A stretch of DNA of 64,000 nt from Spirochaetia bacterium. GTDB taxonomy: Bacteria; Spirochaetota; Spirochaetia; SZUA-6; Bin103. Of this stretch, positions 3,153-56,136 are shown piece by piece. The notes beneath the pieces are model-generated. The model made no database searches, was not told the origin of the DNA, and saw nothing but the letters and a program-made list of their open reading frames with translations. Where the stretch lies: assembly GCA_965198005.1 (NCBI GenBank), contig CBDAOI010000004.1:1613779-1677778 (forward strand), in the 5' to 3' direction. Each line of letters opens with the position of its first letter. Position 1 is the stretch's first letter. The position numbers and the translations under genes were made by a program.

Positions 3153-3178
3153 CGCTGCCGGACGTACATTGGCCGTAC

Positions 3179-3984: not shown

Positions 3985-3990
3985 CGCCGT

Positions 3991-4068: not shown

Positions 4069-4151
4069 CAGACCGACGGGGGATCGGGAACTCCGGGTGG
4101 TAACCGCCCATGGCGCCTTCGTGAACCCGGGACATCGCCGCGCTTTGATCA

Positions 4152-4747: not shown

Positions 4748-4939
4748 ACAAGCGTACGGCTGCACCGTTCGCGTGGCAAGCAGCGCGTCGTGCGCGGTGG
4801 CGCGGCAAGCGGTGCCCGTTTCCCGGATCCGCGGCATCTCCCGGCGGTGGCGCGAGGTCGAAGTGTTCGGGAGGCTGTGACCTGCCCTCACCCGCGCGAC
4901 CGGCTGCGACCGGACCTGGGCCGTGCCCGCCGGCCGCGG

Positions 4940-5569: not shown

Positions 5570-5619
5570 ACCTGGCTAGGTGTAGCGCGGGTGACGACCG
5601 GAATGAGGGCGTTCTTGAC

Positions 5620-13749: not shown

Positions 13750-13761
13750 GGCAAAAAAGGG

Positions 13762-13803
13762 GGAGCTGGGAGGCGGTCGCCTGCAGGCGCGCCTCCCAGC
13801 TCC
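13762..13803. promoter_or_regulatory. intercistronic A-run plus GC-rich stem-loop between substrate-binding protein and permease
   Basis: GGGAGCTGGGAGGCG...CGCCTCCCAGCTCCC perfect inverted repeat. Confidence 0.5.
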
Positions 13804-13837
13804 CACAAACGCCGTGTAGAATGGCGAGACCTGTCAC

Positions 13838-14851: not shown

Positions 14852-14860
14852 AGAGGGCTT

Positions 14861-34116: not shown

Positions 34117-34440
34117 CTAGTATATCATATCATTGACAATCGTATGTCCCGCTTGTATGGTCGATGGTGTGGAGTGGTGGGGTCCGGTCACCGCAATATC
34201 GGGTGCAGCAGTAGCGGTAGTGGCGATCGCGGCCGCGATCACCACTACCATTCAAGAGCATCCGGGATGAAGTCAAGAGCATCCGTGGGAGAGCTCAAGG
34301 TTCAGATCGGAACGGACATCCGCCGCGGGAGCTGAAGCGACCTGCTTACCGAATATCTGTTACAACGGGCGCGTGTCGTTGCTGCTTCAACGCCACTCTC
34401 GCTGCCTGCCTGCGGCGCCGCTCGACCCGGGGCAACCCAG
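34117..34440 (+). repeat. doubly deleted copy of the 41.6-42.8 kb coiled-coil cassette plus its about 100-bp boundary repeat. It occupies the position of the missing dppC.
   Basis: 34117-34330 matches 41657-41790 plus 42011-42030; 34316-34440 matches 42625-42760. The residual ORF encodes only the TM segment of the 41651 protein before a stop. Confidence 0.6.
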
Positions 34441-34475
34441 CGCGTGGCGTATCCGGTGTGGCACGGCTCATTGGC

Positions 34476-35477
34476 TCATTCATAGCGCACCCTCGGATCC
34501 AGGACCGCGTAGACCAGGTCGATGAGCAGATTGATCACCACCACCCCAGTGGCGAACAACAGGTTGATGCCGGAGACCATCGGGTAGTCTCGGTCATTGA
34601 GGGCATGCAGAAAGAGGCGACCGAGCCCCGGCAGGTTGAAGATGTTCTCCATGATCACCGCGCCCCCCACCAGGATCGGCAACTGCAGGCCGATCAGGGA
34701 CACCACCGGGATGAGGGCATTCTTGGCGGCGTGCCGGATCACCACGGCCCGCTCCTTCAGCCCCTTGGACCAAGCGGTCCGGATATAGTCCTGCCTCAGC
34801 ACCTCCAGCATCATGGTGCGCGTCATCCGCATGGTGGCGGCCGCCGAGGCCGTTCCCAGTATCAGGCCGGGAATGAGGAACACCGCCAGATTCCCCAGCG
34901 GGTCTTTCGTGAAGGAAACCAGCTCCAGCGGCGGCGCCCAGCCCCACCAGATGGCCGGGTAGATCATGACCATGACGCCCAGCCAGAAGTTGGGCGTGGC
35001 CAGGCCGATGATGGCGACCGAGCGCCCCAGGAAGTCTGCGACCGTATCCTGGCGAATCGCCGAGTAGATGCCGACCGGCAGCGCGATCACCAGCCCGATG
35101 AGGATTGCCATCAAACCAAGCTCGATGGTTACCGGCAGTCTACCTAGTATCCTGTCCTCTACCGCCAAACCGCCATACAGTGATTCGCCAAGCGTACCCT
35201 GGAGGAGACCTTTGAAGTGGGACTCACCGGTAACCCGGTCAGGGGTCGGCAACACCCCTATCCAGCGTCCGTACTGCACCCAGACAGGCACATCCAATCC
35301 CAGCCGACGCTCGAGCGCTGCACGGTCAATCCCCCCCGTTACGTAGATCTGCACCCGAGCCTCCAATACGTCTATGACATCGCCGGGGATGAAGCGGACC
35401 GAGAGAAAGACCAGGATGCTCAAGATAAACAGGGTGGGGACGACCAGCAGCAGCCGCCGGATGATGTAGGCTCTCAT
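34476..35477 (-). CDS. ABC transporter permease (DppB/OppB-like)
   Basis: MRAYIIRRLLLVVPTLF...RTAWSKGLKERAVVIRHAAKNALIPVVSL. Confidence 0.85.
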   Translation of the reverse strand: MRAYIIRRLLLVVPTLFILSILVFLSVRFIPGDVIDVLEARVQIYVTGGIDRAALERRLGLDVPVWVQYGRWIGVLPTPDRVTGESHFKGLLQGTLGESLYGGLAVEDRILGRLPVTIELGLMAILIGLVIALPVGIYSAIRQDTVADFLGRSVAIIGLATPNFWLGVMVMIYPAIWWGWAPPLELVSFTKDPLGNLAVFLIPGLILGTASAAATMRMTRTMMLEVLRQDYIRTAWSKGLKERAVVIRHAAKNALIPVVSLIGLQLPILVGGAVIMENIFNLPGLGRLFLHALNDRDYPMVSGINLLFATGVVVINLLIDLVYAVLDPRVRYE

Positions 35478-35493
35478 GTCTTCGTAGTAAATG

Positions 35494-35525
35494 GGCGCCG
35501 GGAAGATCGAGGCTCCCGGCGCCCT
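35494..35525. promoter_or_regulatory. intercistronic GC-rich stem-loop between substrate-binding protein and permease
   Basis: GGGCGCCGGGA...TCCCGGCGCCC. Confidence 0.45.
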
Positions 35526-35596
35526 TCTCTGCAGGCAGAACGAGCGCGAAACGCCCGCGGACCCCGCTGCCAGGCGTGGTCCGCGAAGCCGTTGCC

Positions 35597-37378
35597 TCAG
35601 AATCCCATTTCTTTCTTCAGGGCACTATCAATCCAGAGACGGGAGAAGATCACTTCCTCGCCCCCGCTTGATATCAGTTCACCGTTATAGCCTATGAGCC
35701 ACGGCTGGTTCACCGAAAACTGTGGAAGCAAAGGACCATATATCGTCCAGTATTGCTCTAATGCGTACATGACCAAGTCTGGCACCAGCCTGTTCCGCTC
35801 CTCGACGGTGGTCGCGGCTGCGGCTGCGGCATGCATGGCGTCATAAGTCGGGTCGTTGACGCTGCTATTTACACCATCCGTGGTAAACCCACTCATGATT
35901 GACACTGCCCACTGCATGGAAACAGCATACGCCGTATCGTTACTGGCCATTTCGTATTCCTGAGCTTTTCTTCTGGGGCCCCATGCAGCGTTTGGCGTTA
36001 CTTCAACCTCCACATCAACGCCAATCTTCTTCCAGTATGAAGCGGCTAATTCCGCATAGTTTAGATCGAAACGCTCAAGGTGCATCAACACGGTCTTGAA
36101 TCTAGTGCCGTCCGCGCCGCGAGGATACCCGGCAGCATCAAGCAACGCTTCGGCCCCTTCCGGGTTATACGTGCGGCCCTTCTGGAGCTCCTCGGGCCAC
36201 TCTTCAAATGGGGTGGAACCGTCTGTCATGAAACGGCCCAGCCGCCCTTGAGGCATCGGATCTGAGAAACCCTTGAAGTACGAATTGTCAATGGTTTCGA
36301 AGTCCAGTGCCATGTTCATTGCCTTGCGCACCCTGATGTCGTCAAAGGGTTCTATCTGAGTGTTCATTGCAAAACCATTGTCCGATCGAAACCGTACCGG
36401 CCACAATTCGACGTCGGGGTTGGTCCGCTGGATGCTCTCTACCTGCTCGATAGTCCGGAGTTGAGCTACCCCGGCCACACCCACGTAATCCACCTTACCC
36501 GTGCGCATTGCCGCCAGTTGTGTTGCCACTTCGGGCATAATCAGAGCCCTTAACGTGTCAACATATGGCAAACGGTTTTCCGGGTATTTTTCGTCGTAGC
36601 CCCAGTAGCCAGGATTCTTGGTATAGGTGATGGAGCTGCCCTCGGTCCAGTCAGTCAGCTCAAAAGGACCGGTGCCGACCAGGTTGCTCCAAGCCGTTAC
36701 GTCCCCGTGTTCCTTGATCACCTCGGGGGGGTACATGACAGCAAGGGAGTCGTCGAGGATAACCATCAGCGTAAGGAGATTTGGCTCCTTCAGCTTGAAA
36801 ACCACCGTCCATTTGTCGGTGGCCGTTATGGATTCGAATGACACCCCAGTCAAAACACTATAAGCAGCGCTAGGTTCGGTGAAGCCGCTGCCCAGACCCA
36901 GAGTACGGTGAAAGTTATATACGACATCGTCGGCAGTCAGCTCCCGACCGTTCATTGGTGCCTTATCGTGCCAGTGAACGCCCTGGCGGACTTTGACGAC
37001 AACTGTTTTGTCGTCGGGCATTTCCCAGCTCTCCGCCAGAGCCCCCCTCGTGTACTTTGGAGCGGCCATGGTCGGGAAGTTATATTCGTCCCTGGGCGTT
37101 GCCCAGTCGCCGATGCCTAGCTTCTCTACGACCAGGCCCACGGCCACGACACCCCCACTCAAATGTTTGTCAGTATGCGAGGGCGATTCTTTCTTGACGT
37201 AGGTTATTGTCCCGCCATACTCCGGCGCGGTCACCATCTTGCCGGTGGTCGGGTCGGTCACCATTTCCTTCTCCATCGCCGCGGCCGGCTCCTCCTCCGA
37301 GGCAGCCGCCCAGAGGCCGGTGGCGGTCAGTGCGAGGCCACACAGCACGGCGAGCGAAATGCGCATTACGAAATGCAT
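35597..37378 (-). CDS. ABC transporter substrate-binding protein, family 5
   Basis: 593 aa. Paralog of 11926 and 54155. Confidence 0.85.
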   Translation of the reverse strand: MHFVMRISLAVLCGLALTATGLWAAASEEEPAAAMEKEMVTDPTTGKMVTAPEYGGTITYVKKESPSHTDKHLSGGVVAVGLVVEKLGIGDWATPRDEYNFPTMAAPKYTRGALAESWEMPDDKTVVVKVRQGVHWHDKAPMNGRELTADDVVYNFHRTLGLGSGFTEPSAAYSVLTGVSFESITATDKWTVVFKLKEPNLLTLMVILDDSLAVMYPPEVIKEHGDVTAWSNLVGTGPFELTDWTEGSSITYTKNPGYWGYDEKYPENRLPYVDTLRALIMPEVATQLAAMRTGKVDYVGVAGVAQLRTIEQVESIQRTNPDVELWPVRFRSDNGFAMNTQIEPFDDIRVRKAMNMALDFETIDNSYFKGFSDPMPQGRLGRFMTDGSTPFEEWPEELQKGRTYNPEGAEALLDAAGYPRGADGTRFKTVLMHLERFDLNYAELAASYWKKIGVDVEVEVTPNAAWGPRRKAQEYEMASNDTAYAVSMQWAVSIMSGFTTDGVNSSVNDPTYDAMHAAAAAATTVEERNRLVPDLVMYALEQYWTIYGPLLPQFSVNQPWLIGYNGELISSGGEEVIFSRLWIDSALKKEMGF

Positions 37379-37961
37379 CAGATAACTCCTGTTGCTCGAG
37401 AGTACTGAATCGACTGCCGGCCCCTCGCCTACTCTCGAGTTATGCCTGCTTCAACGCCGGCGAGCACAAGCGAGGGCGACAGCGCGGGTCCCCAGGCGGT
37501 ACGGCGCTTGGAGACGAGCCCGGGTTTAGTCGTGGTTAGTCGTAACCGGTCTTGGGTGCCATCCCATCCTCCTTTGACGTGCGCGCACCACCGGCCGTTC
37601 GGATCGCGTCGGGACCTGCGTCCCAGCGTCCACGCGGCTGGCGAGGCGAGTTGGATTGGATTGGCCGGCGACGCCGGCGGTAGAGTTGATAAGTGGGTTG
37701 ATGAGGCCCGGTACGCCGGTCTCGGCGCTGAACGGACACCGCGTGAGGCGCCGGATGGGTTAGCTGTGTTGGGGGGGGGGGACTCCTCACCATTAAGCAA
37801 GCGCGCCGCGAGCTGATTTTCAGCAAATCTCGGCGCGCGGCTGTCAGGGGAACAGAGTGTCATAAGCGTTGACGTGTTATAAGTCACTCAAGCCCTCCGC
37901 AGGTGAGGCACAGCCATACCCAGATGTAGTCGCGATGTCGCGATTGACTGGATCCCACCCT
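37379..37961 (-). promoter_or_regulatory. about 580-nt 5' leader of the 35.6-kb substrate-binding-protein operon. It has a conserved 190-nt structured 5' block, a G11/C11 tract and a hairpin next to the ribosome-binding site.
   Basis: The 5' block 37770-37975 is about 90 percent identical (reverse-complemented) to 53528-53720. The ribosome-binding-site-proximal palindrome CTCGAGAGTA...TACTCTCGAG is shared with the 54.1-kb and 11.9-kb operons. Confidence 0.5.
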
Positions 37962-38261: not shown

Positions 38262-40420
38262 TTCTTGAGATTTCTTTCGGGCAGCCGCGGCAGCCGAGAG
38301 CCCCTCGCGGCGCCGACTCGGGCGCATCGCCCCTCCAGAGCCGTCATTCGCCGGCGATGTGGCCGTCCGCAGGCCGTTCACCGTCCACGTCGGCCTCACA
38401 GCGGCCCGCTGAGGGCATTCCAGCCCCTCGGGGGTAGCCTGGGTACGAGCGCCAGGCTAACTGGCATATGACAGAGGGTGAAAGTCCCTCGGAACGAAGG
38501 AGCAGCCAATCCACGTTTCTCCGCGAGCCGTGCGTTGGCACCTGCGAGGGTGCAGGCGAAGCGTCGGCAGCGGTGCGTGCGGGCAGAGTTATGGAGCGCC
38601 GCAAAATACGACATCTGGAGTGCCGAGACTCTGTACTCGGTCGAAGGCAACACCGGTCGAGCCAGTATGGTGAGGATCGACCGGGCTCCACGGCGTCGAA
38701 GAACTCAGGCACGTGCGTACGTCATATACCGGGACCTGGGAGGTCTTCGGGTCGTCCCGGCGAGTCGTCGCCGGGACCGCGGAGGGAAGGCGTGAGGCTG
38801 GACCAAAGATGAACGACCCGAAGGAGTCGGACATGGGCATAGTAGCGGCGAAGCCGGCGAACAAGGGAGCGCAAGCGACTGCGGAGACGGTGGAGCGAAG
38901 GCCCATGACCAACGGGAATTCGCAAGGTCAAAGCACGGGCCGGACGCAGAGTCGGGCAACCGTGACACAGGCGGCCGAGCGGATACGGCAATTCGTAAAG
39001 AGAGAACCGCAGGAGAAACTCACTGCGCTGCTGCACCACGTGACGCCGGAAGCGCTGCGGGTGGCCTATTACGCGCTGAAGCGTGAAGCGGCCCCGGGGG
39101 TGGACGGGATGACGTGGCGGGAGTACGAGACGGGGTTGGAAGTGCGCTTGCACGACCTGCACCGGCGAGTACACACAGGAGCGTACCGAGCGACCCCGGT
39201 ACGGCGGGTCAACATCGACAAGCCGGACGGAGGCACACGACCGCTGGGGGTGGCCGCGCTGGAGGACAAGATCGTCCAGAAGGCCGTGGTGGATGTGATC
39301 CTGACACCGATCTATGAGGAGGAATTTCTCGGGATCAGCTATGGGTTTCGACCGGGGCGCGGGGCACACGATGCGTTGGACGCACTGGCCTACGCCATCG
39401 AACGGCGCGAAGTGAACTGGATATTGGACGCGGACATTCGCGCCTACTTCGACACGATCTCGCGGGACTGGTTGATCAGATTCCTGGAGCATCGGATTGG
39501 AGATCGGCGGGTGCTGCGGCTGATAAAGAAGTGGCTGCGCGCTGGGGTACTGGAAGAAGGCCGACAGATCGACGCGGGGCGGGGTACAGCGCAAGGGTCG
39601 GTGATTTCACCGATGCTCGCGAATATATACTTGCACTACGTGTTGGACCTGTGGGTCACCAAGAAGTGGCGGCCGCAGGAGGCGCGCGGAGACATGATCA
39701 TAGTGCGCTACGCAGATGACTATGTCGCCGGGTTCGAGCATCGTGACGATGCGGAACGCTTCCTGCGGGAACTGAAGGAGCGATTCAGAGGCTTCGAGCT
39801 GGAACTGAACGCCGACAAGACCCGACTCCTCGAGTTTGGACGGTATGCCGAAAGGAACCGCCGAGCACGTGGGGAAGGGCGACCGGAGACGTTCGACTTT
39901 CTGGGTTTCACGCATTATTGCAGGAAGGACAGGAAAGGACGCTTCGGGCTGGGGCGGAAGCCAATTCGGAAGCGGATGAATCGTACGCTGAAGAGGATCA
40001 AGATCGAGCTCCGCAGACGAATGCATGATGACGTGATGGAAACCGGGCGCTGGCTGGGACGGGTACTGCGCGGATGGCTCAACTACTACGCGGTACCCAC
40101 CAGCTACCGCTATCTGCACCGATTCGTGTGGCGTCTGCGAGGAATCTGGGTAAAGATTCTACGCCGGAGGTCCCAGAAGGACCGATTCTCCTGGGCTTGG
40201 ATGCTGGCGATCAGCATCAAGCTGTGGCCCCAACCCCGAATCGTACACTCATGGCCGGACCGGCGATTTGCCGTCAACCACCGAAGGTAGGAGCCGGATG
40301 GTTTAACGACCACGTCCGGATCTGTGCGGGGGGCGCCGGGTAACCGGCGTTCCTACCGCGCCCCCCTGCAACACCCGTCAACGCCGATTCCCGGCACCGC
40401 TGGCTCCGTATTGACCGCGC
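38262..40420 (+). mobile_element. group II intron (retroelement). The RNA boundaries are approximate.
   Basis: Contains a complete reverse-transcriptase/maturase ORF. There is a GNRA-capped GC-rich hairpin 30-80 nt after the ORF stop (40324-40370) in the position expected for domain V. Structured GC-rich RNA-like sequence precedes the ORF. Confidence 0.6.
38809..40290 (+). CDS. group II intron-encoded reverse transcriptase/maturase (RT domains 0-7 plus X domain, no En/HNH domain)
   Basis: AAPGVDGMTWREYE..., RAYFDTISRDWLIRFLEH, QGSVISPMLANIYLHYVLD, IVRYADDYVAGF (YADD), and the X-domain WLNYYAVPTSYRYL. The ORF track starts at 38713; the likely true start is near 38809-38833. Confidence 0.85.
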   Translation: MNDPKESDMGIVAAKPANKGAQATAETVERRPMTNGNSQGQSTGRTQSRATVTQAAERIRQFVKREPQEKLTALLHHVTPEALRVAYYALKREAAPGVDGMTWREYETGLEVRLHDLHRRVHTGAYRATPVRRVNIDKPDGGTRPLGVAALEDKIVQKAVVDVILTPIYEEEFLGISYGFRPGRGAHDALDALAYAIERREVNWILDADIRAYFDTISRDWLIRFLEHRIGDRRVLRLIKKWLRAGVLEEGRQIDAGRGTAQGSVISPMLANIYLHYVLDLWVTKKWRPQEARGDMIIVRYADDYVAGFEHRDDAERFLRELKERFRGFELELNADKTRLLEFGRYAERNRRARGEGRPETFDFLGFTHYCRKDRKGRFGLGRKPIRKRMNRTLKRIKIELRRRMHDDVMETGRWLGRVLRGWLNYYAVPTSYRYLHRFVWRLRGIWVKILRRRSQKDRFSWAWMLAISIKLWPQPRIVHSWPDRRFAVNHRR

Positions 40421-40914: not shown

Positions 40915-41598
40915 TCAGCGCTTGCAGGTCAGGAACGACGTGAGGTGCGGGCTGCAGAGCCCCCCCCAGTCGCGCCCAAACCCGCGCGGCGGCTCGACGC
41001 TCTCCAGTTCGGCAAGATCAAGCCCGCACATCGCCTCCAGCCGCTGTGCGAGCGCGGACTCCTGGAGACTGTCGGGCAAGTGGTCGAGCCACGCTTGATA
41101 CTCACCCTGGAGGTCGAGCAGGGTGCCTACCGCATCCTGCCAGCGCTGCGGTCGGGACCTGCGGTCTTGCGGCCTGCGGTACTGCACCCGGGGCTGCGCT
41201 GCCTTGCGGCGCTCTCGATAGCGCCGTTGTCGTTCCGTGCGGTCACGCAGCATCGCGCACGCCACCGCGAGCAACCGGTCCGCGACCGTACGCAGCGCCC
41301 GGCCATGGCGCTGCCCGCGCGCGCGTAGCGCCGCATACCGCTCCCGACTCACCGGATCGTGCTGGATCGCCACCCGCGCCCAGTGATACATCGCGTTGCT
41401 CAGCCGCTGGTTGCAGGCACGGCGCATGCTCACCTGGCAACTCTTCCCCTGCGATTGATCAGCCCGTTGCGTTCCTCCTGCAACTCGGCAGTCCGGCGCG
41501 ACCATTCCCGCAACTCGATCACCGGCGGTGCCTGCACCTGCAACTGACGAAAGCTGCTGATAAGAAATCAGCCAGCCCGGCAGGTATCTTTGGCTCAC
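40915..41598 (-). pseudogene. IS110-family transposase, C-terminal portion only. The N-terminal DEDD domain is absent, and the C-terminal extension is unrelated.
   Basis: APDCRVAGGTQRADQSQGKSCQVSMRRACNQRLSNAMYHWARVAIQHDPVSRERYAALRARGQRHGRALRTVADRLLAVACAML parallels the IS110 block PRQHQSG..RGRISKRGN..LRRALYMAAL.A.RHNP....FY.RL...GK..KVALVA..RKLL....AML. Confidence 0.45.
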
Positions 41599-41650
41599 TT
41601 ACTCGTGATGGCAGGCCCAGCTTGCGGGTCAGGGGAGTACCGGAGTAGCC

Positions 41651-42100
41651 ATGAGCCGCAGTATATCATTGACAATCGTATGTCCCGCTTGTATAGTCGA
41701 TGGCGTGGAGTGGTGGGGTCCGGTCACCGCAATATCGGGTGCGGCAGTCGCGGTAGTGGCGATCGCGGCCGCGATCACCAGACCATTCAAGAGCATCCGG
41801 GATGAAGCTCGGCAGGCCCATGCCCTGATCGGGGAGAACATCAATGCCGTGCGCACCGACCTGGGCGCCAAGATCGACGGCGTGCGCGCCGAACTGCATG
41901 CCGACATCAAGGCGGTAGATGCCAAGGTCGACGGCGTGCGCACCGACCTCACCGCCAAGATCGACGGCGTGCGCACCGACCTGACCGACTTGGCCAAAGA
42001 CGTGGGAGAGCTCAAGGTCCAGATCGGCCGGATCGACGAACGCACCAGAGCATCGACCGAACAGACGAACGCTCCACTCCCGTCACCCCCACAGCATTAG
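41651..42100 (+). CDS. small membrane-anchored coiled-coil protein with imperfect 13-residue repeats (VRTDLxAKIDGVR)
   Basis: 149 aa. N-terminal hydrophobic helix VTAISGAAVAVVAIAAAIT, then repeats. No family assignment is possible from sequence alone. Confidence 0.45.
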   Translation: MSRSISLTIVCPACIVDGVEWWGPVTAISGAAVAVVAIAAAITRPFKSIRDEARQAHALIGENINAVRTDLGAKIDGVRAELHADIKAVDAKVDGVRTDLTAKIDGVRTDLTDLAKDVGELKVQIGRIDERTRASTEQTNAPLPSPPQH

Positions 42101-42121
42101 TGCACAGGCGGATGAAGTGGG

Positions 42122-42522
42122 CTACGCGACGCCTTCCCGCGGCTTGTCGGGCGGCTGGTTGCGGCTGCTCCAGAACAGCCCCTCGATGATTCCCTCGACC
42201 TTCGACAGCCGGTCCCCGATGTTGACGACGCGTGCGGTGAGTTCCTTGAAGCCGGCCTGCATCTCTGCCCGCAGCCGGCCGTCGCCGGCCCTTATTTCGT
42301 CCCGCAACGCGCTCTCGACGCCCTTTATTTCGTCCCGCAACGCGCTCTCGACGCCCTTTATTTCGTCCCGCAACGTGCTCTCGACGCCCTTTATTTCGTC
42401 CCGCAACGCGCCTCACTGGCCCGCAACTCGCGCAACTCGTGACGGATGCCGCGATTGGACGCCAACGTCACGGTGCCGAGGGCGATTGTCGCTGCGATGA
42501 TCCCTATCAGCTCCAGGCTCAT
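42122..42522 (-). CDS. second small membrane-anchored coiled-coil repeat protein, convergent with 41651-42100. It is interrupted by a 1-nt frameshift at the first of 3.5 tandem 36-bp repeats.
   Basis: ATG at 42522 with GGAGAG ribosome-binding site. MSLELIGIIAATIALGTVTLASNRGIRHELRELRASEAR, then out of frame, then (A)LRDEIKGVES x3 ... GIIEGLFWSSRNQPPDKPREGVA. Confidence 0.4.
42283..42420. repeat. tandem 36-bp repeat (about 3.5 units), coding for a 12-aa repeat
   Basis: CGCTCTCGACGCCCTTTATTTCGTCCCGCAACGCG repeated head-to-tail. The first unit carries one extra base. Confidence 0.8.
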
Positions 42523-42651
42523 GTACACCTCTCCGGCGCTCCGCTCCCTGCCCGGCAGTCTACCGCTTGGCGGCCACGGTGTCACCTTGGCTGCGGCCCC
42601 ACGCCTCCTCGCCACGCCGAAGTCGCGCACGACGGACATCCGCCGCGGGGA

Positions 42652-42760
42652 GCTGAAGCGACCTGCTTACCGAATATCTGTTACAACGGGCGCGTGTCGT
42701 TGCTGCTTCAACGCCACTCTCGCTGCCTGCCTGCGGCGCTGCTCGACCCTGGGGCACCGC
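42652..42760. repeat. about 100-bp boundary repeat shared with 34334-34440
   Basis: Direct sequence identity over about 100 bp with 2-3 mismatches. Confidence 0.75.
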
Positions 42761-43140
42761 AGCGCGTGGCTCAGGGACACCACCGGGATGAGGGCATTCT
42801 TGACGGCGTGCCGGATCACCACGGCCCGCTCCTTCAGCCCCTTGGACCAGGCGGTGCGGATAGGGCGTGGCTTCAATGAGTAAGGGAGCTGGGAAGTCTG
42901 AGCCTCCCAGCTCCCTTTTTTTGGCCTGAGGCCAGGCACAACGGGTGCAACCCCTAATGCCCCATTTCTTCCTTCAGCTCAGAATCAACCCAGAGGCGGG
43001 TGAAGACCGTATTGTATTGACCGCGTCCCAACGCCAATTCACCGTTAAAACTCTTGACCCACGGCTGGACGGCCACATACTGTGGGGCCGCACCACCCCA
43101 TATCTGCCAGAACTGCTCTATCGCATACGAGGCGATCAGC
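42760..43140 (-). pseudogene. remnant of a fourth ABC operon: substrate-binding-protein C-terminal about 60 aa, intercistronic hairpin, and about 30 aa of permease B
   Basis: Minus-strand translation of 42950-43140 gives ...AYAIEQFWQIWGGAAPQYVAVQPWVKSFNGELALGRGQYNTVFTRLWVDSELKEEMGH. 42667-42850 gives IRTAWSKGLKERAVVIRHAVKNALIPVVSL. Hairpin GGGAGCTGGGAAGTCTGAGCCTCCCAGCTCCC at 42884-42915 with a T7 run on the plus strand. Confidence 0.5.
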
Positions 43141-43340
43141 CGGAGCGGTTAGTTGTTTCTCGGTTCGAAAAGTGTGTGTGTGTGGGGGGGGGGGACGATA
43201 GGATGCACCGGCTGCGTCACTGCCAACCGGCCACTGCGCTGACTGTCATCATGGCACCCTCCCGGTGCACCCGAGCACGCCCGCCGCACCCCGGCGCTTC
43301 GGCGAGCGCGCACGCCTTGCGCGGCGGACGAGCGTTTCCG
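43130..43340 (-). promoter_or_regulatory. truncated substrate-binding-protein leader fragment, including the (GT)6 G11 tract
   Basis: Reverse complement matches the 53.7-kb leader (GATCAGCCGGAGCGGTTAGTTGTT...CGAAAAG) and the 11.2-kb leader (CATGATGACA.TCAG...AGTGGCCGGTTGGC.GTGACGCAGC). Confidence 0.45.
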
Positions 43341-43354
43341 TATGATGCGCGGCG

Positions 43355-44152
43355 ATGGAGTTGGGAGTCTACGGCCTGGGCCGCTTCGGGACGTTCTGGG
43401 CCGCGGAGCTGGCCCGACACTTCACGGTATGCGCCTACTCGCGCCGCGCCCATCACGCTCCGGCCGGCGTGCGGATAGTGTCCGAGGACGAGTTGCTGCA
43501 GTGCCCGGTGGTCGTGCTGTGCGTGGCCATCTCGGCCATGGAGGAGGTAGCCGAACGCATCCGCCCGCGCCTCGGGGCCGACACACTGGTGATGGACACG
43601 TGCTCGATCAAGGGGTTCCCGGCGCGCGTCATGACGGAACGGTTGCCCGCGGCGACGCGCATTCTGGCCACCCATCCGCTGTTCGGCCCCGACTCGGCCC
43701 GCGCCGGCGTAGCCGGGCAGCCGATGATCCTCTGCCCGGTGCGGTTGAGCGCCGCCGAAGTGGGGGAGTGGCAGGGCCGGTTCCGGGCCATGGGGCTGCG
43801 CGTCATCACCATGACCCCGGAGCAGCACGACCGGGAGGCGGCGTTCACGCAGGGCGTGACCCACTACCTCGGCCGCGTGCTGGCCGAGATGGGGTTGCGC
43901 GATTCCCCGATCTCGACCGTCGGCTATCAGCAGCTCCGCACCATCGTGGAGCAGACCTGCAACGACTCGCTGCAGCTCTTCCTCGACCTCCAACGGTACA
44001 ATCCCTACACGCGGGCGATGCGCGACCGCCTCGAGCGGGCGCTGGGCACCGTCAAGGCCCGGCTCGACGCGCCGGCTCCCGGCGAACCGTCGACCGGGCG
44101 GCCCGTTCGTCCGGATCGTCCGGGCGCGTCCGGTCAGTCCGGTCAGGCTTGA
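43355..44152 (+). CDS. tyrA: prephenate/arogenate dehydrogenase
   Basis: MELGVYGLGRFGTFWAAEL Rossmann motif plus the C-terminal dimerisation domain. Confidence 0.75.
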   Translation: MELGVYGLGRFGTFWAAELARHFTVCAYSRRAHHAPAGVRIVSEDELLQCPVVVLCVAISAMEEVAERIRPRLGADTLVMDTCSIKGFPARVMTERLPAATRILATHPLFGPDSARAGVAGQPMILCPVRLSAAEVGEWQGRFRAMGLRVITMTPEQHDREAAFTQGVTHYLGRVLAEMGLRDSPISTVGYQQLRTIVEQTCNDSLQLFLDLQRYNPYTRAMRDRLERALGTVKARLDAPAPGEPSTGRPVRPDRPGASGQSGQA

Positions 44153-44223: not shown

Positions 44224-44296
44224 GGGCCGCTAGCTCAGTAGGTAGAGCAACAGCCTTTTAAGCTGTGGGTGCGGGGTTCGATCCCCCGGCGGCTCA
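44224..44296 (+). tRNA. tRNA-Lys (anticodon UUU), 73 nt
   Basis: GGGCCGC acceptor; D arm UAGCUCAGUAGGUAGAGCA; anticodon arm ACAGC-CUUUUAA-GCUGU; T arm CGGGG-UUCGAUC-CCCCG. Confidence 0.85.
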
Positions 44297-48029: not shown

Positions 48030-48077
48030 GACGGGCCGAGGTTCAGTGCGAATCCAGCTCGGCGGCGGAGCCCGCCC

Positions 48078-49631
48078 TCAGCCGTCCGCCACCTCGAACG
48101 CGGTCACGTTGCGCGTCTCGCGGCTGAACTCCACCCCGATCAGGTGGATCGGCTGTTTCAGGTGACGGTACTTGGCCGCGTAATCCCGGCTCTCGAGCTG
48201 CGCCAGCGCCGACCCCGGCGGCGCCATCTCCACGACCTTGAACTCGAACAGGTACACGTGCCCGCCGGTGCGCACCGCCATGTCCAGCCGACCGTGGCTG
48301 CTCGACTCCTCCACTGCGATCTCGTACCCCAGCGCCGCGAAGTAGGAGTAGACCACGCTTGCGTAGAAGCCCTCGTAATCGGCGATGGCGTTGTTCGTGT
48401 ACCACTGGTACGGGATGCTCGCGAAAAAGGCGTGGAACAGCTCCTTCAGCCCCGCGCAGTCGTGCGCCTCCAGCAATCGCGCCAAACGCACGCTGTTGGC
48501 CGTCTGCCGCTCCGCGTCCTGCACCAGTTGCCGCAGCAGCACCCGGTTCAGGCTCTGGCGCACCTCCCGGTTGGGATAGCCCAGCCGATACAGCGCCATG
48601 CCGCCCAGCTCCTCTTCCCCCGTAATCGTCAGGTAGCCGGTCTGGAACAGCAGCGCTTCGGTGCCGATGTGCTCTACGTCGAACTTCGACAGCAGATCCT
48701 CCGTGCTCACCGTCCGGTCCAGTGACACCGACGCGACCCGGCGCTCGAACAGCGTGTCCACCAGGAACGCCGGGGTCCCGGTCTCGAACCAGTGGGCGGC
48801 AAACTTGCGACGGCGCAGCAGCAGCAGCACGTCGTACGGGTTGTACACCCTCTCCGCGCCCAGCCAGCTATAGCCGTTGTACCACTCGCGCACCCGCTCC
48901 CGGTCCAGGCCTTCCAACTCCGGCGCGAACACCGTCTCCAGGTCGCCCTCCGTGTAGCCGCAGATCGACGAGTAAGCCGGATCCAGGGTGATGTCGGTGA
49001 GGTTGTTCAGGTCGGAAAACAAGCTCACCTTGGTGAACTTGCTCACCCCGGTCACGAACGTGAACCGCACGTGCGCGTCGCTCGCCTTGATCACCCCGTA
49101 CAGGCCGCGCAGGTAGTCGCGGTTGGCACGGGCGATCTCCGGCGTCTCCAGCGCGTCCAGGATCGGCTTGTCGTACTCGTCCACCAGCACCGCCACCCGC
49201 TGCCCGCTCCGCTCGTGCAGCGACCGGATCAGGTAGCCGAACCGTTCAGGCGGCGTGTCGTAGCGCGGACTCACCCCGGTGGCTACCTCCATGCCGTCCA
49301 ACTGCGCCGCCAGGTTGATCCGGAGATAGCCCGGATCCTTGAAGCTCCCGCCGGCGAAGTCCAGCCGCACCACCGGGTGGCGCGCCGACCAGTTCCAGTC
49401 CCCGTGGTCGTGGACGTGGAGCCCCGTGAACAGCTCCTCGTTGCCCTCGAACAGCTCCTTCAGGGTGTCCAGAAGCAGACTCTTGCCGAACCGCCGCGGG
49501 CGCGACAGGAAATAGTGGGCGCCTTCATCGAGCAGCCGTTCGATGTAGGGCGTCTTGTCCACGTAATAACAGTCCTGTTCGCGCAGCTTGCGGAAGGTCT
49601 GCATGCCGATGGGCAGTCTGCGTCGGGCCAC
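48078..49631 (-). CDS. AAA-ATPase-like (PF09820-type) N-domain plus PD-(D/E)XK (PDDEXK_9-type) C-domain protein, copy 1
   Basis: MARRRLPIGMQTFRKLREQDCYYVDKTPYI...LSRPRRFGKSLLLDTLKELFEGNEELF. C-terminal GRLDMAVRTGGHVYLFEFKVVE. Confidence 0.7.
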   Translation of the reverse strand: MARRRLPIGMQTFRKLREQDCYYVDKTPYIERLLDEGAHYFLSRPRRFGKSLLLDTLKELFEGNEELFTGLHVHDHGDWNWSARHPVVRLDFAGGSFKDPGYLRINLAAQLDGMEVATGVSPRYDTPPERFGYLIRSLHERSGQRVAVLVDEYDKPILDALETPEIARANRDYLRGLYGVIKASDAHVRFTFVTGVSKFTKVSLFSDLNNLTDITLDPAYSSICGYTEGDLETVFAPELEGLDRERVREWYNGYSWLGAERVYNPYDVLLLLRRRKFAAHWFETGTPAFLVDTLFERRVASVSLDRTVSTEDLLSKFDVEHIGTEALLFQTGYLTITGEEELGGMALYRLGYPNREVRQSLNRVLLRQLVQDAERQTANSVRLARLLEAHDCAGLKELFHAFFASIPYQWYTNNAIADYEGFYASVVYSYFAALGYEIAVEESSSHGRLDMAVRTGGHVYLFEFKVVEMAPPGSALAQLESRDYAAKYRHLKQPIHLIGVEFSRETRNVTAFEVADG

Positions 49632-49804
49632 GCCTCATCTTACCCCGTCGCCCGACGGATTCAAACACACCCTGTCGGCTTGTCGGCTCGGAGAGATGGA
49701 CACGCACCGCACGCCTGACGATACCCCTGACCTGACCCTGCGTCGGAATGCGCCGGAAAAAGGTGCTTGACGCCTTGCTGTCTCCCGAGACGGCGAGCCC
49801 GCCC

Positions 49805-51358
49805 TCAGCCGTCCGCCACCTCGAACGCGGTCACGTTGCGCGTCTCGCGGCTGAACTCCACCCCGATCAGGTGGATCGGCTGTTTCAGGTGACGGTACTT
49901 GGCCGCGTAATCCCGGCTCCGGAGCTGCGCCAGCGCCGACCCCGGCGGCGCCATCTCCACGACCTTGAACTCGAACAGGTACACGTGCCCGCCGGTGCGC
50001 ACCGCCATGTCCAGCCGACCGTGGCTGCTCGACTCCTCCACTGCGATCTCGTACCCCAGCGCCGCGAAGTAGGAGTAGACCACGCTTGCGTAGAAGCCCT
50101 CGTAATCGGCGATGGCGTTGTTCGTGTACCACTGGTACGGAATACTCGCGAAGAAGGCGTGGAACAGCTCCTTCAGCCCCGCGCAGTCGTGCGCCGCAAG
50201 CAGCCGTTGCAGGCGGATGCTGTTCGCGGTCTGCTGTTCGCTGTCCTCCACCAGATGCTGCAGTAGATACTCATTCAGGCTCTGCCGCACCTCGCGGTTG
50301 GGGTAGCCCAGCCGGTACAGCGCCTTGCCGCCCAGCTCCTCTTCCCCGGTGATCGTGAGGTAACCGGTCTGGAACAGCAGCGCCTCGGTGCCGATGTGCT
50401 CTACGTCGAACTTCGACAGCAGCGCCTCGGTGCTCACCGTCTGGTCCAGCGACACCGACGTGACCCGCCGCTGGAACAGCGTGTCCACCAGGAACGCCGG
50501 GGTCCCGGTCTCGAACCAGTGGGCGGCAAACTTGCGACGGCGCAGCAGCAGCAGCACGTCGTACGGGTTGTACACCCTCTCCGTACCCAGCCAGCTATAG
50601 CCGTTGTACCACTCGCGCACCCGCTCCCGGTCCAGGCCTTCCAACTCCGGCGCGAACACCGTCTCCAGGTCGCCCTCCGTGTAGCCGCAGATCGACGAGT
50701 AAGCCGGATCCAGGGTGATGTCGGTGAGGTTGTTCAGGTCGGAAAACAAGCTCACCTTGGTGAACTTGCTCACCCCGGTCACGAACGTGAACCGCACGTG
50801 CGCGTCGCTCGCCTTGATCACCCCGTACAGGCCGCGCAGGTAGTCGCGGTTGGCACGGGCGATCTCCGGCGTCTCCAGCGCGTCCAGGATCGGCTTGTCG
50901 TACTCGTCCACCAGCACCGCCACCCGCTGCCCGCTCCGCTCGTGCAGCGACCGGATCAGGTAGCCGAACCGTTCAGGCGGCGTGTCGTAGCGCGGACTCA
51001 CCCCGGTGGCTACCTCCATGCCGTCCAACTGCGCCGCCAGGTTGATCCGGAGATAGCCCGGGTCCTTGAAGCTCCCGCCGGCGAAGTCCAGCCGCACCAC
51101 CGGGTGGCGCGCCGACCAGTTCCAGTCCCCGCGGTCGTGGACGTGGAGCCCCGTGAACAGCTCCTCGTTGCCTTCGAACAGCTCCTTCAGGGTGTCCAGA
51201 AGCAGACTCTTGCCGAACCGCCGCGGGCGCGACAGGAAGTAATGCTTGCCCTCGTCCAGCAACCGCGCGATGTAGGGCGTCTTGTCCACGTAATAACAGT
51301 CCTGTTCGCGCAACTCGCGGAAGGTCTGCATGCCGATGGGCAGTCTGCGTCGGGCCAC
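49805..51358 (-). CDS. AAA-ATPase-like plus PD-(D/E)XK protein, copy 2. Tandem duplicate, about 95 percent identical to copy 1.
   Basis: Same length (517 aa), with identical N- and C-termini. The unit period is 1727 bp. Confidence 0.7.
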   Translation of the reverse strand: MARRRLPIGMQTFRELREQDCYYVDKTPYIARLLDEGKHYFLSRPRRFGKSLLLDTLKELFEGNEELFTGLHVHDRGDWNWSARHPVVRLDFAGGSFKDPGYLRINLAAQLDGMEVATGVSPRYDTPPERFGYLIRSLHERSGQRVAVLVDEYDKPILDALETPEIARANRDYLRGLYGVIKASDAHVRFTFVTGVSKFTKVSLFSDLNNLTDITLDPAYSSICGYTEGDLETVFAPELEGLDRERVREWYNGYSWLGTERVYNPYDVLLLLRRRKFAAHWFETGTPAFLVDTLFQRRVTSVSLDQTVSTEALLSKFDVEHIGTEALLFQTGYLTITGEEELGGKALYRLGYPNREVRQSLNEYLLQHLVEDSEQQTANSIRLQRLLAAHDCAGLKELFHAFFASIPYQWYTNNAIADYEGFYASVVYSYFAALGYEIAVEESSSHGRLDMAVRTGGHVYLFEFKVVEMAPPGSALAQLRSRDYAAKYRHLKQPIHLIGVEFSRETRNVTAFEVADG

Positions 51359-52028
51359 GCCTCATCTTACCCCGTCGCCCGACGGATTCAAACACGCGGC
51401 ACCAGTATATACCCTGACCTTGACTCGGCGTCCCCGGCTTGTGGACGCCTACGCGCCCGGTGCTGCCGCCGTTGCGTGCCGCGGTGCGTTCGGGGTAGCG
51501 CCGTCAGCCCTTCACGCCGCCCTGGGTAAGGCCCTGGGGTTGAGCGGCTTCGGAGCTCAAGCCCAACGGCTGACGGTTCTCTCGTCGAATCGCTCGGTGG
51601 CGCGGGGTGCGCCGATCGAGGCGGTGGGGCATACGGACCTCCTGGTACGCAATGCGCGCGGCGAGCGGCAGCGCATCGTGCAGGCCGACCAGATACTGTT
51701 CCTGCATCCGGCGCGAGGTGGGCACGGGCGCGCTGCCGGAGGTGGTGCTGGAGGTGGACAACACCACCGACGTACGCCGCGGCAAGCTCGGCTCTCCGAG
51801 TCGTGGGGTTTTCCGGAGGTGTGGGCGGAGGTGCCGGACGAGCCCGCGCCGAGCCGGCCAGCGGCGCTTGGTCCCGGCAGCGGCGGCGTGAGCGCGGGGC
51901 CCTTGACGTGATACAGGGTTGATAGGGGGCGCAGTTGTGCCTACAATAATGCTTCTGGCGCCGTGCTGGAGTTCATCGAAGCAAACGGAGAGTCCGTGTT
52001 ATCAACTGCTCGAACCGGAACAGGTTGA

Positions 52029-54154: not shown

Positions 54155-55939
54155 ATGAGTAATCTGTTCAAAACATGCGTCGCCGTAGTGTTCGGTCTCG
54201 TGCTGATCGCCATCGGCGTCGGGGCAAGCCCGGCCGGGGAAGAGGAGCCGGCCGCGGCGATGGAGAAGGAGATGGTGCTCGACCCCACCACCGGCAAGAT
54301 GGTGTCGGCGCCGGAGTATGGCGGCACATTCACCTGGGGCGATGCCACCGGGGCTCCGCACTGTGACCCTCACATCCATGGCTGGGGGCCACGGGCCATC
54401 GACGGCGTTGCAGAGAGGCTAGGCATCAGGGACTGGGCAGCAGATAGGAACGAAATCAGCTTTTCAGACTCTTATACTCCTCTCCGTTTCGTGAGAGGGG
54501 CGCTGGCGGAAAGCTGGGAGATGATCGACTCACTGACGTATGTCTACCACATCCGCAAGGGCGTTCGCTGGCACGACAAAGCGCCGATGAATGGTCGGGA
54601 GTTCACTGCCCAGGATGTCGTATACAACTTTCACCGTTATACGGGTTCGGGCAGCGGCTTCACCGAACCTAGCGCCGCTGCTGGCACACTCGCTTCGATA
54701 CCACTCGAATCGATAACCGCCAGCGACGATTCGACGGTTGTCTTCAAGCTGACGCAGCCAAAGGTAGACTTGCTGGATGTCCTTGCCATCGACTGGAGTG
54801 CCGCTATGTTACCCCCAGAGGTAATCGAGCAATACGGCGACCTGACGGACTGCGACAACATGGTCGGTACCGGGCCCTATATGCTGACAGAATGGGTCGA
54901 TAACACGTCTATGACGTATTCCAAGAATCCTGACTACTGGGGCTTTGACGAAAAATATCCGGAGAACCGCTTGCCCTACATCGACCAGATAAACCGGCTA
55001 ATCATGCCGGAAAAGGAAACACAGCTGGCGGCGCTACGCTCGGGTAGGCTCGATTACATCGGTCAGTCCGGCGGGGGTCAGTTACAAGTGGCCCAGGTGG
55101 AGAACCTACAGCGGACCAACCCCGAAATCGTTTTATACCCGTGGGCCTTTCGGTCGGAGACCTCTGTTGCATTCAACCTGCGCCACCCGTCGCCCTTTCA
55201 AGACATCAGGGTTCGCAAGGCGATGCAGATGGCCATTGATCTGGAGACCATCAACAATACTTACTTTCGTGGCTTTGCAATGACGAAACCCCAAGGAATC
55301 ATAGGAGACGGTCTGAAGGGGTACTACATCCCATTCGAAGAGTGGCCCGAAGAGACCAGGAAAGTCTTTGCGTATGACCCGGAAGGGGCCGAAGCGTTGC
55401 TTGATGAGGCTGGGTATCCGCGCGGTGCGGATGGCATTCGATTCAAGACCGTCCTGAACCCCGTGCCCTCGTGGGATGTGGGTTATCAAGAAATAGCCGC
55501 TGAATACTGGGCTGCGATTGGCGTTGACGTAGAGGTTAAGATAACTGAAGTCGCTCAACTGATGGCGCTGGTAACTGAAGGTACTTATGAAGGGATGGCC
55601 TATATGGATATCGGCAATGACGGCTCGATTCAATGGCTGATGAGTGTTCTTCAAATCGGAGCGCAATGGGGCCGCACAGGACATCAGGACCCGGTGATGG
55701 ACGCCAAGGCAAAAGCCGCTATGGCCGCTACCAGGCTCGAGGAGCAGCAGCGGCTGGTGGCGGAGGCAGATATGTACTCGATCCAGCAGCATTGGTTCAT
55801 ATGGGGTCCTAAAGTTCCCCAATTTGAGGCGGTGCAGCCGTGGGTGATAGGTTTTAACGGTGAAATCTGGTATACTACACATGCGCCTTTCGAGCGCCTG
55901 TGGATCGATAGTGCGCTGAAGAGCGAAATGGGTTTCTGA
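54155..55939 (+). CDS. ABC transporter substrate-binding protein, family 5
   Basis: 594 aa. Paralog of 11926 and 35597. Confidence 0.85.
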   Translation: MSNLFKTCVAVVFGLVLIAIGVGASPAGEEEPAAAMEKEMVLDPTTGKMVSAPEYGGTFTWGDATGAPHCDPHIHGWGPRAIDGVAERLGIRDWAADRNEISFSDSYTPLRFVRGALAESWEMIDSLTYVYHIRKGVRWHDKAPMNGREFTAQDVVYNFHRYTGSGSGFTEPSAAAGTLASIPLESITASDDSTVVFKLTQPKVDLLDVLAIDWSAAMLPPEVIEQYGDLTDCDNMVGTGPYMLTEWVDNTSMTYSKNPDYWGFDEKYPENRLPYIDQINRLIMPEKETQLAALRSGRLDYIGQSGGGQLQVAQVENLQRTNPEIVLYPWAFRSETSVAFNLRHPSPFQDIRVRKAMQMAIDLETINNTYFRGFAMTKPQGIIGDGLKGYYIPFEEWPEETRKVFAYDPEGAEALLDEAGYPRGADGIRFKTVLNPVPSWDVGYQEIAAEYWAAIGVDVEVKITEVAQLMALVTEGTYEGMAYMDIGNDGSIQWLMSVLQIGAQWGRTGHQDPVMDAKAKAAMAATRLEEQQRLVAEADMYSIQQHWFIWGPKVPQFEAVQPWVIGFNGEIWYTTHAPFERLWIDSALKSEMGF

Positions 55940-56070
55940 GCATGTCGCCGTAGGCGACTTGCAGTGGACCCGCCTTCAGGCGGGGCACGAGCGGCTCCGC
56001 CGTTGGCTGAATCAATCGCCCGTTGGGCGATTGAAACGGGAGTCGCTGCGCGACTCCACGAGCACCGCGG

Positions 56071-56119
56071 GCGCCGGGAGGACGCTTCCGAGTGCGCTTC
56101 AGAGCGCGCTTCCCGGCGC
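56071..56119. promoter_or_regulatory. intercistronic GC-rich stem-loop between substrate-binding protein and permease
   Basis: GCGCCGGGAGG...CTTCCCGGCGC. Confidence 0.45.
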
Positions 56120-56136
56120 TCATTTACCACGAAGAT

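Follow-up and report, generated by a model that had tools for sequence, protein, structure and literature searches.

Two convergent small genes for predicted membrane-anchored hendecad-repeat proteins at a rearranged dpp locus of a Spirochaetia bacterium

The window analyzed in this study, meaning the whole stretch of 64,000 nucleotides, is derived from a Spirochaetia bacterium (assembly GCA_965198005.1, contig CBDAOI010000004.1, positions 1,613,779 to 1,677,778) and has a G+C content of 65%. It contains two small convergent open reading frames (ORFs), ORF1 on the plus strand and ORF2 on the minus strand, which lie at a locus of dpp-type peptide ABC transporter genes. A previous examination of the letters alone, which we call the sequence-only reading, had taken the two genes and a repeated boundary sequence for a mobile or recombining cassette replacing the permease gene dppC. 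We found two separate convergent genes, each with its own promoter, and not one cassette. The interpretation that we favor with moderate confidence, on the basis of sequence comparison and structure models, is that they are ordinary chromosomal genes for membrane-anchored proteins of 11-residue (hendecad) repeats, that these proteins would form a cytoplasmic stalk or tether, and that ORF2 took the place of dppC at a locus part of which was duplicated.

As had been noted, the product of each gene has a hydrophobic helix at its N-terminus and tandem repeats after it. Since the period is 33 bp in both of them, the repeat unit is 11 residues, not the 12-13 residues initially proposed. ORF1 was confirmed as the listed ORF at 41651-42100, with a start codon that is probably further downstream. 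A small convergent gene is likewise present at 42122-42522, but in the window it is interrupted by a frameshift. Positions of all features are collected in Table 1.

The repeat of about 100 bp at the end of the supposed cassette is real and extends over 139 bp, but it is the upstream region of ORF2 itself and not a cassette boundary. Because it carries the upstream motif of the ORF2 family and because the upstream intergenic region of an ORF2 relative in another contig (L043) aligns with window positions 42672-42755, it is assigned as the native 5' region of ORF2 and not as the terminus of an element. Nor does it behave as a common genomic repeat in the sequences compared, a possibility that would have deprived it of meaning. 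The segment has only two copies in the window, and it is likewise confined to these two places in L001 (615 kb) and L002, metagenome contigs that match the window along 20.4 kb at 99.8% identity and along 14.5 kb at 99.7% identity, respectively. The motif occurs in the window exactly twice, once in each copy of the 139-bp repeat, with zero occurrences expected by chance.

The upstream regions of 24 ORF2-family loci with a locatable start were aligned, and most of them have a conserved promoter of GTGACA, 17 nt and TAGGAT, followed by the ribosome-binding site GGAGAGGTG and an ATG or GTG start. Upstream of this sigma-70-like promoter, most of the ORF2-family loci examined have a distal element consisting of TGAAGCRGCAGCG, 9-10 nt and CGTT, which is located approximately 130 bp upstream of the ORF2 homologues in L010-L039. 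Its core 13-mer, TGAAGCRGCARCG, was found on the gene's strand just upstream of the ORF2 homologue in 22 of 35 Spirochaetia loci examined, and with two exceptions it is single per locus. Its spacing would suit a promoter for an alternative sigma factor of the extracytoplasmic function (ECF) type or a regulator site, so that stress regulation of the ORF2 family is possible. A sigma-54 promoter was considered and rejected, since the GG is not conserved (R is found there) and the spacing is off. A metagenome scan with the distal motif gave 120 chance matches in unrelated organisms, none of them with an ORF2 homologue, because the pattern is too short, and an Rfam search of 41500-43400 at E-values up to 1 gave no match.

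More than 180 full-coverage homologues of ORF2 were found. The transmembrane (TM) segment is conserved as ELIGIIAAxIALG, the number of 11-residue units between it and the C-terminus is variable, and the C-terminus is strongly conserved as LRxEMQAGFKELTARVVNIGDRLSKVEGIIEGMFWSSRNQPPDKPREGAA, with the C-terminal peptide FWSSRNQPPDKPREGAA. In a scan of one genome per species, 33 ORF2-family loci were detected, all in metagenome-assembled genomes labelled Spirochaetia or Spirochaetaceae; they come from approximately 17 genomes, and each of the better-sampled genomes has 3-6 of them. The ratio of nonsynonymous to synonymous substitution rates (dN/dS) in the non-repeat (TM and C-terminal) modules was 0.05-0.35 for in-register pairs, pairs with values above 1 having been ignored as their N-termini were mis-registered, and the ratio for ORF1 was 0.22-0.25. 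Both families are under purifying selection and conserved, and the lack of conservation that had been feared for such small ORFs was not observed. The closest relatives of ORF2 are P0034 (in L043) and P0035 (in L044), which are situated between a gene for a 592-amino-acid (aa) protein and a PhyH gene, and the same flanking sequence is found in L014.

Table 1. Positions of the genes, regulatory sequences, duplicated segments and lesions described in the text (window coordinates; percentages are nucleotide identities unless stated otherwise).
Feature	Position	Strand	Details
ORF1 as listed	41651-42100	+	149 aa, open reading frame list
ORF1 coding sequence from probable GTG start	41705..42100	+	TM helix and stalk of 11-residue repeats
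ORF1 sigma-70-type promoter	41669..41697	+	TTGACA, 17-nt spacer, TATAGT; promoter scan and conservation
Degenerate 33-bp repeats in ORF1	41841..42016	+	DGVRTDLTAKI units; Tandem Repeats Finder
4-bp deletion (AATA) removing ORF1 stop	42059..42060	+	relative to L001 and L002
ORF2	42122..42522	-	TM helix, 11-residue repeats, conserved C-terminal module GDRLSKVEGIIEGLFWSSRNQPPDKPREGVA; frameshifted in the window
ORF2 33-bp tandem array	42288..42411	-	ALRDEIKGVES units; 3.8 copies, 96% match, Tandem Repeats Finder
1-bp deletion frameshifting ORF2	42412..42413	-	relative to L001 and L002 (extra G after 42412)
Proximal ORF2 sigma-70-type promoter	42557..42585	-	GTGACA, 17-nt spacer, TAGACT; then ribosome-binding site GGAGAGGTG
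139-bp repeat (distal part of ORF2 upstream region)	42632..42770	-	96% identical to 34312-34448
Distal ORF2-family motif	42685..42710	-	TGAAGCAGCAACG, 9 nt, CGTT; second window copy 34364-34389
SBP_bac_5 3'-end fragment, more distant paralogue	42954..43076	-	46 bp 83% identical to intact gene
Decayed ORF1 copy	34120..34310	+	promoter, first ~50 codons (frameshifted) and 27-bp 3' piece kept
Second copy of ORF2 upstream region, ORF2 deleted	34312..34448	-	motif at 34364-34389
Copy match	34127-34272 = 41663-41807		96%, BLAST
Copy match	34284-34310 = 42001-42027		27 bp, 96%, BLAST
Copy match	34312-34448 = 42632-42770		96%, BLAST
Copy match, internal 92-bp dppB fragment	34694-34785 = 42771-42862	-	97%, BLAST
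Intact dppB-type permease gene	34476..35477	-	stop overlaps vestigial dppC start ATGAATGA
SBP_bac_5 substrate-binding protein gene	35597..37378	-	intact; same operon as dppB
Group II intron	38481..40290	+	between binding-protein upstream region and ORF1
IS110-family transposase remnant	40915..41598	-	partial Transposase_20 domain

The genomic settings of the ORF2 family bear directly on the question of mobility. The flanks of the 33 loci fall into at least seven syntenic sets, which are approximately 90% identical across species and have unrelated neighbors between sets; the neighbors include genes for a GFO/IDH/MocA oxidoreductase, a sugar ABC permease, LeuA, GNAT, a polysaccharide exporter and a methyltransferase. 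Homologous loci share only the gene and approximately 130-250 bp of its upstream region, and the DNA similarity of the relatives to ORF2 of the window stops at the stop codon. ORF1, dppB and dppC were found in none of the 33 loci, a distant SBP_bac_5 gene being located approximately 1.7 kb away in L014, and the adjacency of ORF1 and ORF2 is limited to this species. No terminal inverted repeats bracket 41560-42900 and no target-site duplication was seen, the sole duplicated short sequence being ATCAT at 34130. The IS110 remnant and the group II intron, both of which were confirmed at the flank where they had been noted, adjoin as independent insertions and are absent from related contigs.

These results make it very unlikely that ORF1, ORF2 and the boundary repeat are a single mobile or site-specifically recombining cassette targeting the dppB/dppC junction. 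It is true that the two copies in the window have both ends in common (34120/41660 and the 139-bp segment), but the latter end is the promoter-distal region of ORF2 itself, and the homology between the copies continues for 92 bp within dppB, as would be expected of a segmental duplication more than of a discrete element. The ORF2 module stands exactly in the dppC slot and its closest relatives are at another locus, so that it was moved or copied; its relatives nevertheless lie at stable syntenic loci without ORF1 and dpp genes, relatives of ORF1 occur without ORF2, and the terminal repeats and target duplications of a transposing unit are missing. The nearby IS110 remnant, group II intron and Rpn-like nuclease gene, together with the tandem alternation of ORF2 paralogues and Rpn-like genes in L032, are the remaining points for such a cassette. 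We consider instead that a single copying or relocation event evidently brought the ORF2 module into the dpp locus, and nothing in these comparisons marks the module as a transposable unit.

Genes for Rpn-like proteins were observed in the window and in L032. At 1800-2519 on the minus strand of the window, a putative transposase domain of the YhgA-like/Rpn type (PF04754, E = 1.7e-32) is joined to a 3' fragment of dppC, and a homologue of window 1867-2298 occurs three times in L032 (4748-7857) between tandem ORF2-family paralogues, an ORF2 paralogue followed by an Rpn-like gene being the tandemly repeated unit. Rpn-type recombination-promoting nucleases might be linked to the relocation of ORF2-family genes.

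For ORF1, the start codon in the ORF list was reconsidered. Among eight ORF1 copies in different contexts, conservation starts approximately 10 nt before the promoter TTGACA, 17 nt, TAT(A/G)GT; no similarity among these copies was found upstream of that point, and the upstream part of the frame that opens at ATG 41651 shows no conservation among them. The promoter scored 11 of 12 in the promoter scan, against 0.1 expected by chance. An in-frame GTG at 41705 is located 8 nt past the -10 box, and homologues of like architecture start here with MEWWQ or MDWWQ. In the AlphaFold2 model of the long form, the predicted local distance difference test score (pLDDT) is below 50 for residues 1-28. The listed ATG 41651 is probably spurious and GTG 41705 the true start, which gives a protein of 131 aa in the window and 119 aa in L001. 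Since the -10 box lies only 8 nt before the conserved GTG, a leaderless or near-leaderless mRNA beginning at this codon is suggested.

The ORF1 family is smaller. An exhaustive profile search with ORF1 found one cluster, at the 50% identity level, of true full-length relatives, and at the 90% identity level there are four other clusters, 77-89% identical to ORF1; the remaining 673 matches are mostly to the repeats only, and a few of them have the same architecture. Near-identical AKIDGVRTDLT units were observed in P0006, P0007, P0008, P0012 and P0024 of unrelated bacteria (Massilia, Acidiferrobacterales), which have the opposite architecture with the TM helix at the C-terminus. The profiles of ORF1 and ORF2 were linked by hhalign at 94% probability, and intermediates such as P0168 and P0198 link the two families at 97-98%. 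The two families may belong to one broad class, while the composition of a TM helix plus repeats inflates such scores.

Related contigs show what the locus looks like elsewhere. In L003, L004, L005 and L008, there is an intact operon of the substrate-binding protein gene, dppB and dppC, and ORF1 lies convergently to it, abutting the dppC stop; in L006 ORF1 follows dppC in the same direction, and in L007 it is found without a dpp operon. ORF2 is absent from all of these ORF1-bearing contigs (L003-L008). ORF1 is thus the usual convergent neighbor of dppC in relatives, and the claim that the cassette stands in place of dppC holds for ORF2 with its upstream region but not for ORF1. The dppB stop overlapping ATGAATGA also forms the dppB stop/dppC start in the paralogous operon at 57 kb. 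Past ATGAATGA, the window sequence is unrelated to dppC, and the junction was therefore rejected as a remnant of the 5' end of dppC. By this comparison, ORF2 with its upstream region has taken the place of the dppC coding sequence, starting at roughly the third codon and including all the rest of the gene. In L003, L004, L008 and L009, the upstream region of the binding-protein gene (equivalent to window 37200-37755) is located approximately 160 bp from ORF1, and therefore the intron and the insertion sequence (IS) element between them in the window are later insertions. The intron consists of RNA domains at 38481-38705 (Rfam RF02005, 169 bits) and a reverse-transcriptase ORF at 38713-40290. 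The IS110 ORF looks chimeric, part of the Transposase_20 domain being joined to an unrelated C-terminal tail that ends in PRGFGRD.

The second copy at 34 kb is, by the matches in Table 1, a decayed partial duplicate, the two copies having lost complementary parts. It is a deleted copy, as had been stated, but what it retains of ORF1 is not limited to the first 50 codons or so and includes a 27-bp piece of the 3' end. Missing from it are the repeats and the 3' end of ORF1 as well as the whole of ORF2 and its proximal promoter. In the 42-kb copy, dppB lacks 245 bp at its 3' end, and none of the sequence 5' of the 92-bp dppB piece is retained; a dppB fragment is indeed present close to the 42760-42850 given earlier, at 42771-42862, but it is an internal piece and not the 3' end. 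The shared segment once comprised approximately 1.45 kb with ORF1, ORF2, the ORF2 upstream region and the 3' third of dppB. Beyond the dppB fragment, 46 bp from the 3' end of a binding-protein gene (42961-43006) match the intact gene at 35597-37378 with an identity of only 83%, and hence its origin is placed in an older binding-protein paralogue. We infer the following order of events. The dppC sequence from the third codon to the stop would have been replaced by ORF2 with approximately 250 bp of its native upstream region, the segment of about 1.45 kb from ORF1 to mid-dppB would have been duplicated later, with the copies then losing complementary parts, and the group II intron and the IS110 element would have been inserted afterwards between the two copies.

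Further features were observed around the locus. Paralogous loci for dpp-type peptide ABC transporters number at least four in the window (2289-6107, 12604-15748, 34476-37378 and 54180-57916), two of which are fragmented or without dppC. Between the dppB and binding-protein fragments, at 42884-42922 on the plus strand, a GC-rich hairpin, GGGAGCTGGGA...TCCCAGCTCCC, is followed by TTTTTTT; it reads as a plus-strand terminator, and no plus-strand gene ends there. The other neighbor at the locus is a prephenate dehydrogenase gene, just downstream of which a tRNA gene is located (44224-44296, plus strand; Rfam RF00005, 64 bits). At approximately 48063-49668 and 49791-51395 there are two adjacent, 95.8%-identical gene copies with AAA-ATPase_like and PDDEXK_9 domains, according to the L001 annotation. 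Genes without a Pfam match adjoin the ORF1 homologues in L003 (7565-9115, 516 aa) and L006 (10373-11953, 526 aa); the former splits a binding-protein gene into two halves and may be an uncharacterized insertion element.

The integrity of the two genes in the window was examined by comparison with L001 and L002, in both of which ORF2 is intact with 133 aa. In the window, ORF2 is split into a 43-codon piece from ATG 42522, which falls inside a listed ORF of 82 aa (42391-42639), and a 94-aa ORF in another frame (42122-42406). Counted from ATG 41651, ORF1 has 149 aa in the window and 137 aa in L001 and L002, where AATA restores the stop. The window and L001 differ by five indels (at 34178, 37770, 42059, 42412 and 51411), and in every case the window is the one that lacks bases. 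Assembly errors or strain-specific lesions could account for them, and the all-deletion pattern points to systematic assembly error over real variation. The frameshift and the missing stop, together with a 34-kb copy that is plainly a pseudogene and nearby dpp operons that are broken up and invaded by the intron and IS elements, could be taken to mean that both genes are dead, functionless remnants in a decaying region of this genome. We regard this as quite unlikely, since both genes are intact in two independent assemblies of 99.7-99.8% identity, the one-sided indels suggest assembly error, and both families are under purifying selection.

As single chains, AlphaFold2 models ORF2 as one continuous helix over residues 3-121 (mean pLDDT 90) and ORF1 as one over residues 27-136. 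Hydrophobic periodicity has its peak at 3.65 in the ORF2 family and at 3.62 in ORF1-like proteins, near 11/3, and its power in the ORF2 family is 6.9 times that at 3.5. This agrees with the structural class of hendecad (11/3) coiled-coil stalks, which is marked by a long helix without interruption and a hydrophobic periodicity near 3.67. The unit consensus is L-R-E-E-M/I-K-A-L/G-D-S-A, with core positions 1, 5 and 8. Across 98 ORF2-family members, the distance from the TM helix to the GDRLSK stretch varies from 37 to 118 residues, and almost all stalk lengths fall into classes 8, 4 and 0 modulo 11, i.e., steps of 11, 7 or 4 residues, which indicates that the anchor and the C-terminal module stay in register. 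The N-terminal flank of the TM helix has a net charge of -1 with an invariant Glu4, and the C-terminal flank has 4.5 K+R against 2.9 D+E. By the positive-inside rule, this bias predicts that the N-terminus is outside and the C-terminus inside.

In the model that we propose, each protein would have a very short acidic N-terminus, one TM helix, an unbroken helix of about 100 residues made of 11-residue repeats, and a conserved C-terminal module. The helix would project into the cytoplasm, the proteins would self-associate as a right-handed coiled-coil rod, and the rod would serve as a tether or scaffold, the number of repeats determining how far from the membrane it holds the conserved C-terminal peptide. 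Several observations weigh against this model or the history proposed for the locus. The predicted topology is based on charge bias only, and a helix modeled as a single chain is mute on the oligomeric state. A glycine in each repeat (KGV, DGV) is odd for a rigid coiled coil and fits amphipathic repeats on a lipid surface better. The copies in the window, with ORF2 frameshifted and the ORF1 stop lost, are perhaps non-functional unless these are assembly errors. A simple tandem duplication is insufficient for a dppB fragment of 97% identity adjacent to a binding-protein fragment of 83%. As to regulation, the distal motif has AAG where ECF -35 boxes typically have AAC, and its spacer GCAGCG is conserved, so that it is perhaps a regulator site instead.

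The recurring glycine is one reason to consider that the proteins are membrane-tethered amphipathic 11-residue repeat proteins that lie on the inner membrane surface and stabilize the membrane or sense its state under stress. The 11-residue periodicity would liken them to apolipoproteins, group 3 late embryogenesis abundant (LEA) proteins, alpha-synuclein and perilipin, and their best sub-threshold matches are to apolipoproteins A-I/E (Pfam, 18 of 21 members, best E = 1.8e-6; PDB, best E = 0.005), although these are under the curated cut-offs (21 bits vs 90). The distal promoter-like motif could suit a stress sigma factor. The hydrophobic face, however, is narrow (positions 1, 5 and 8), as is typical of a coiled-coil core, and the maintenance of register in steps of 11, 7 and 4 residues argues for a structural rod. 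This alternative is in our view rather unlikely. A more specific proposal, that the ORF2 family forms length-variable membrane rulers of Spirochaetia, whose stalks of 37-118 residues would tune the distance of the C-terminal peptide from the membrane, co-regulated through the distal motif by an alternative sigma factor and copied as gene plus promoter to new sites, such as that of dppC, by illegitimate recombination promoted by the Rpn nucleases found with some paralogues, is speculative and appears unlikely as a whole.

The main use of these results is that a false lead has been removed, because the apparent mobile cassette is a gene with its own regulatory region that has been affected by local duplication and decay, at a site where redundant operons for peptide transporters are clustered. 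There is nothing mechanistically new in this, and the positive result is modest. It consists of the definition of an uncharacterized multi-copy family, found here only in Spirochaetia genomes, with a TM anchor, a register-keeping variable hendecad stalk, a conserved C-terminal peptide and a two-part upstream region as its hallmarks, and of a smaller related family, that of ORF1. The common upstream motif gives a handle toward a regulator, and the proteins are candidates as membrane tethers or stress proteins.

Comparison with known families agreed with the sequence-only reading that neither protein can be assigned to one. Scans of Pfam, NCBIfam, PHROGs and PADLOC with both proteins gave no curated match, only sub-threshold coiled-coil noise; a sequence-profile search of PDB gave weak apolipoprotein matches only, and a Foldseek search of PDB gave none. 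The weak Pfam matches (Apolipoprotein, Baculo_PEP_C, CCDC90-like and DUF1664) appear to reflect the composition of the 11-residue repeats. The suggested reminiscence of spanin, XhlA and apolipoprotein-like proteins is architectural only and failed in profile tests.

The proteins are small and have a TM helix plus a coiled coil, as i-spanins and XhlA do, and the N-terminal position of the TM helix resembles that of Rz-type i-spanins. The best PHROG match to an Rz-like spanin is that of ORF1; this match is weak (E = 0.013) and ORF2 has none, so that membership in the i-spanin profile was rejected. An i-spanin also needs a periplasmic coiled coil (N-terminus inside, C-terminus outside), and the charge bias here (N-flank -1, C-flank +1.7) gives the opposite, cytoplasmic orientation as a prediction only. 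No ORF of at least 20 aa with a lipobox signal peptide is present in 41600-42700, so that a lipoprotein (o-spanin) partner is neither embedded nor adjacent, and the neighbors are dpp genes, the IS110 remnant, the intron and prephenate dehydrogenase, with no phage genes or lysis cassette among them. XhlA (PF10779) was rejected because it gave no Pfam match even at E-values up to 10, and because XhlA carries its TM helix at the C-terminus, unlike the N-terminal helix here. Considering also that family members lie at conserved chromosomal loci beside metabolic genes and have no significant PHROG, Pfam or PADLOC match, we judge it extremely improbable that these genes encode prophage-derived lysis or membrane-fusion proteins of the i-spanin, XhlA or holin-like type.

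Exchangeable apolipoproteins (A-I, E) share amphipathic helical repeats of 11 and 22 residues with ORF1 and ORF2 but have no TM anchor. Apolipoprotein A1/A4/E (PF01442) was rejected, with 21.2 bits for ORF1 against a gathering cut-off of 90, and the match most likely reflects common repeat composition and not common descent. The DUF1640/CCDC90 family, which includes MCUR1, consists of membrane-anchored coiled-coil stalks (PMC4786415). Sub-threshold Pfam matches to it were found for 15 of 21 ORF2-family members (best E = 9.8e-6), and the ORF1 unit DGVRTDLTAKI is nearly identical to the repeats of DUF1640-annotated Massilia proteins. The DUF1640 proteins, however, have an N-terminal head domain and a C-terminal TM helix, whereas ORF1 and ORF2 are headless with the TM helix at the N-terminus, and CCDC90-like/DUF1640 (PF07798) was rejected on these grounds and on the score of ORF2 (14.3 bits vs 33.5).

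Subunit b of the F-type ATP synthase, which forms the peripheral stalk, has an N-terminal anchor and a hendecad helix in a right-handed coiled coil (PMC3293630, PMC6131620). The anchor is a TM helix (N out, C in), and the hendecad helix is long and cytoplasmic. It is like ORF1 and ORF2 a small protein with an N-terminal anchor and a hendecad helix. It differs in that ORF1 and ORF2 have no sequence match to it in Pfam and are not in an atp operon, and in that the ORF2 family has near-identical tandem repeats of varying number, its own C-terminal module and several copies per genome. Tethers of the YhcB/ZapG (DUF1043), ZipA and EzrA type are bitopic; their N-terminus is short and lies outside, and the part in the cytoplasm is helical or a coiled coil. 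In size, YhcB is close to ORF1 and ORF2, and this is a resemblance only, with no sequence similarity to YhcB/ZapG, ZipA or EzrA at the thresholds used and no link to cell-division genes. ATP synthase subunit b and small tethers such as YhcB would thus be the closest architectural analogues of the two proteins, by analogy and not by membership.

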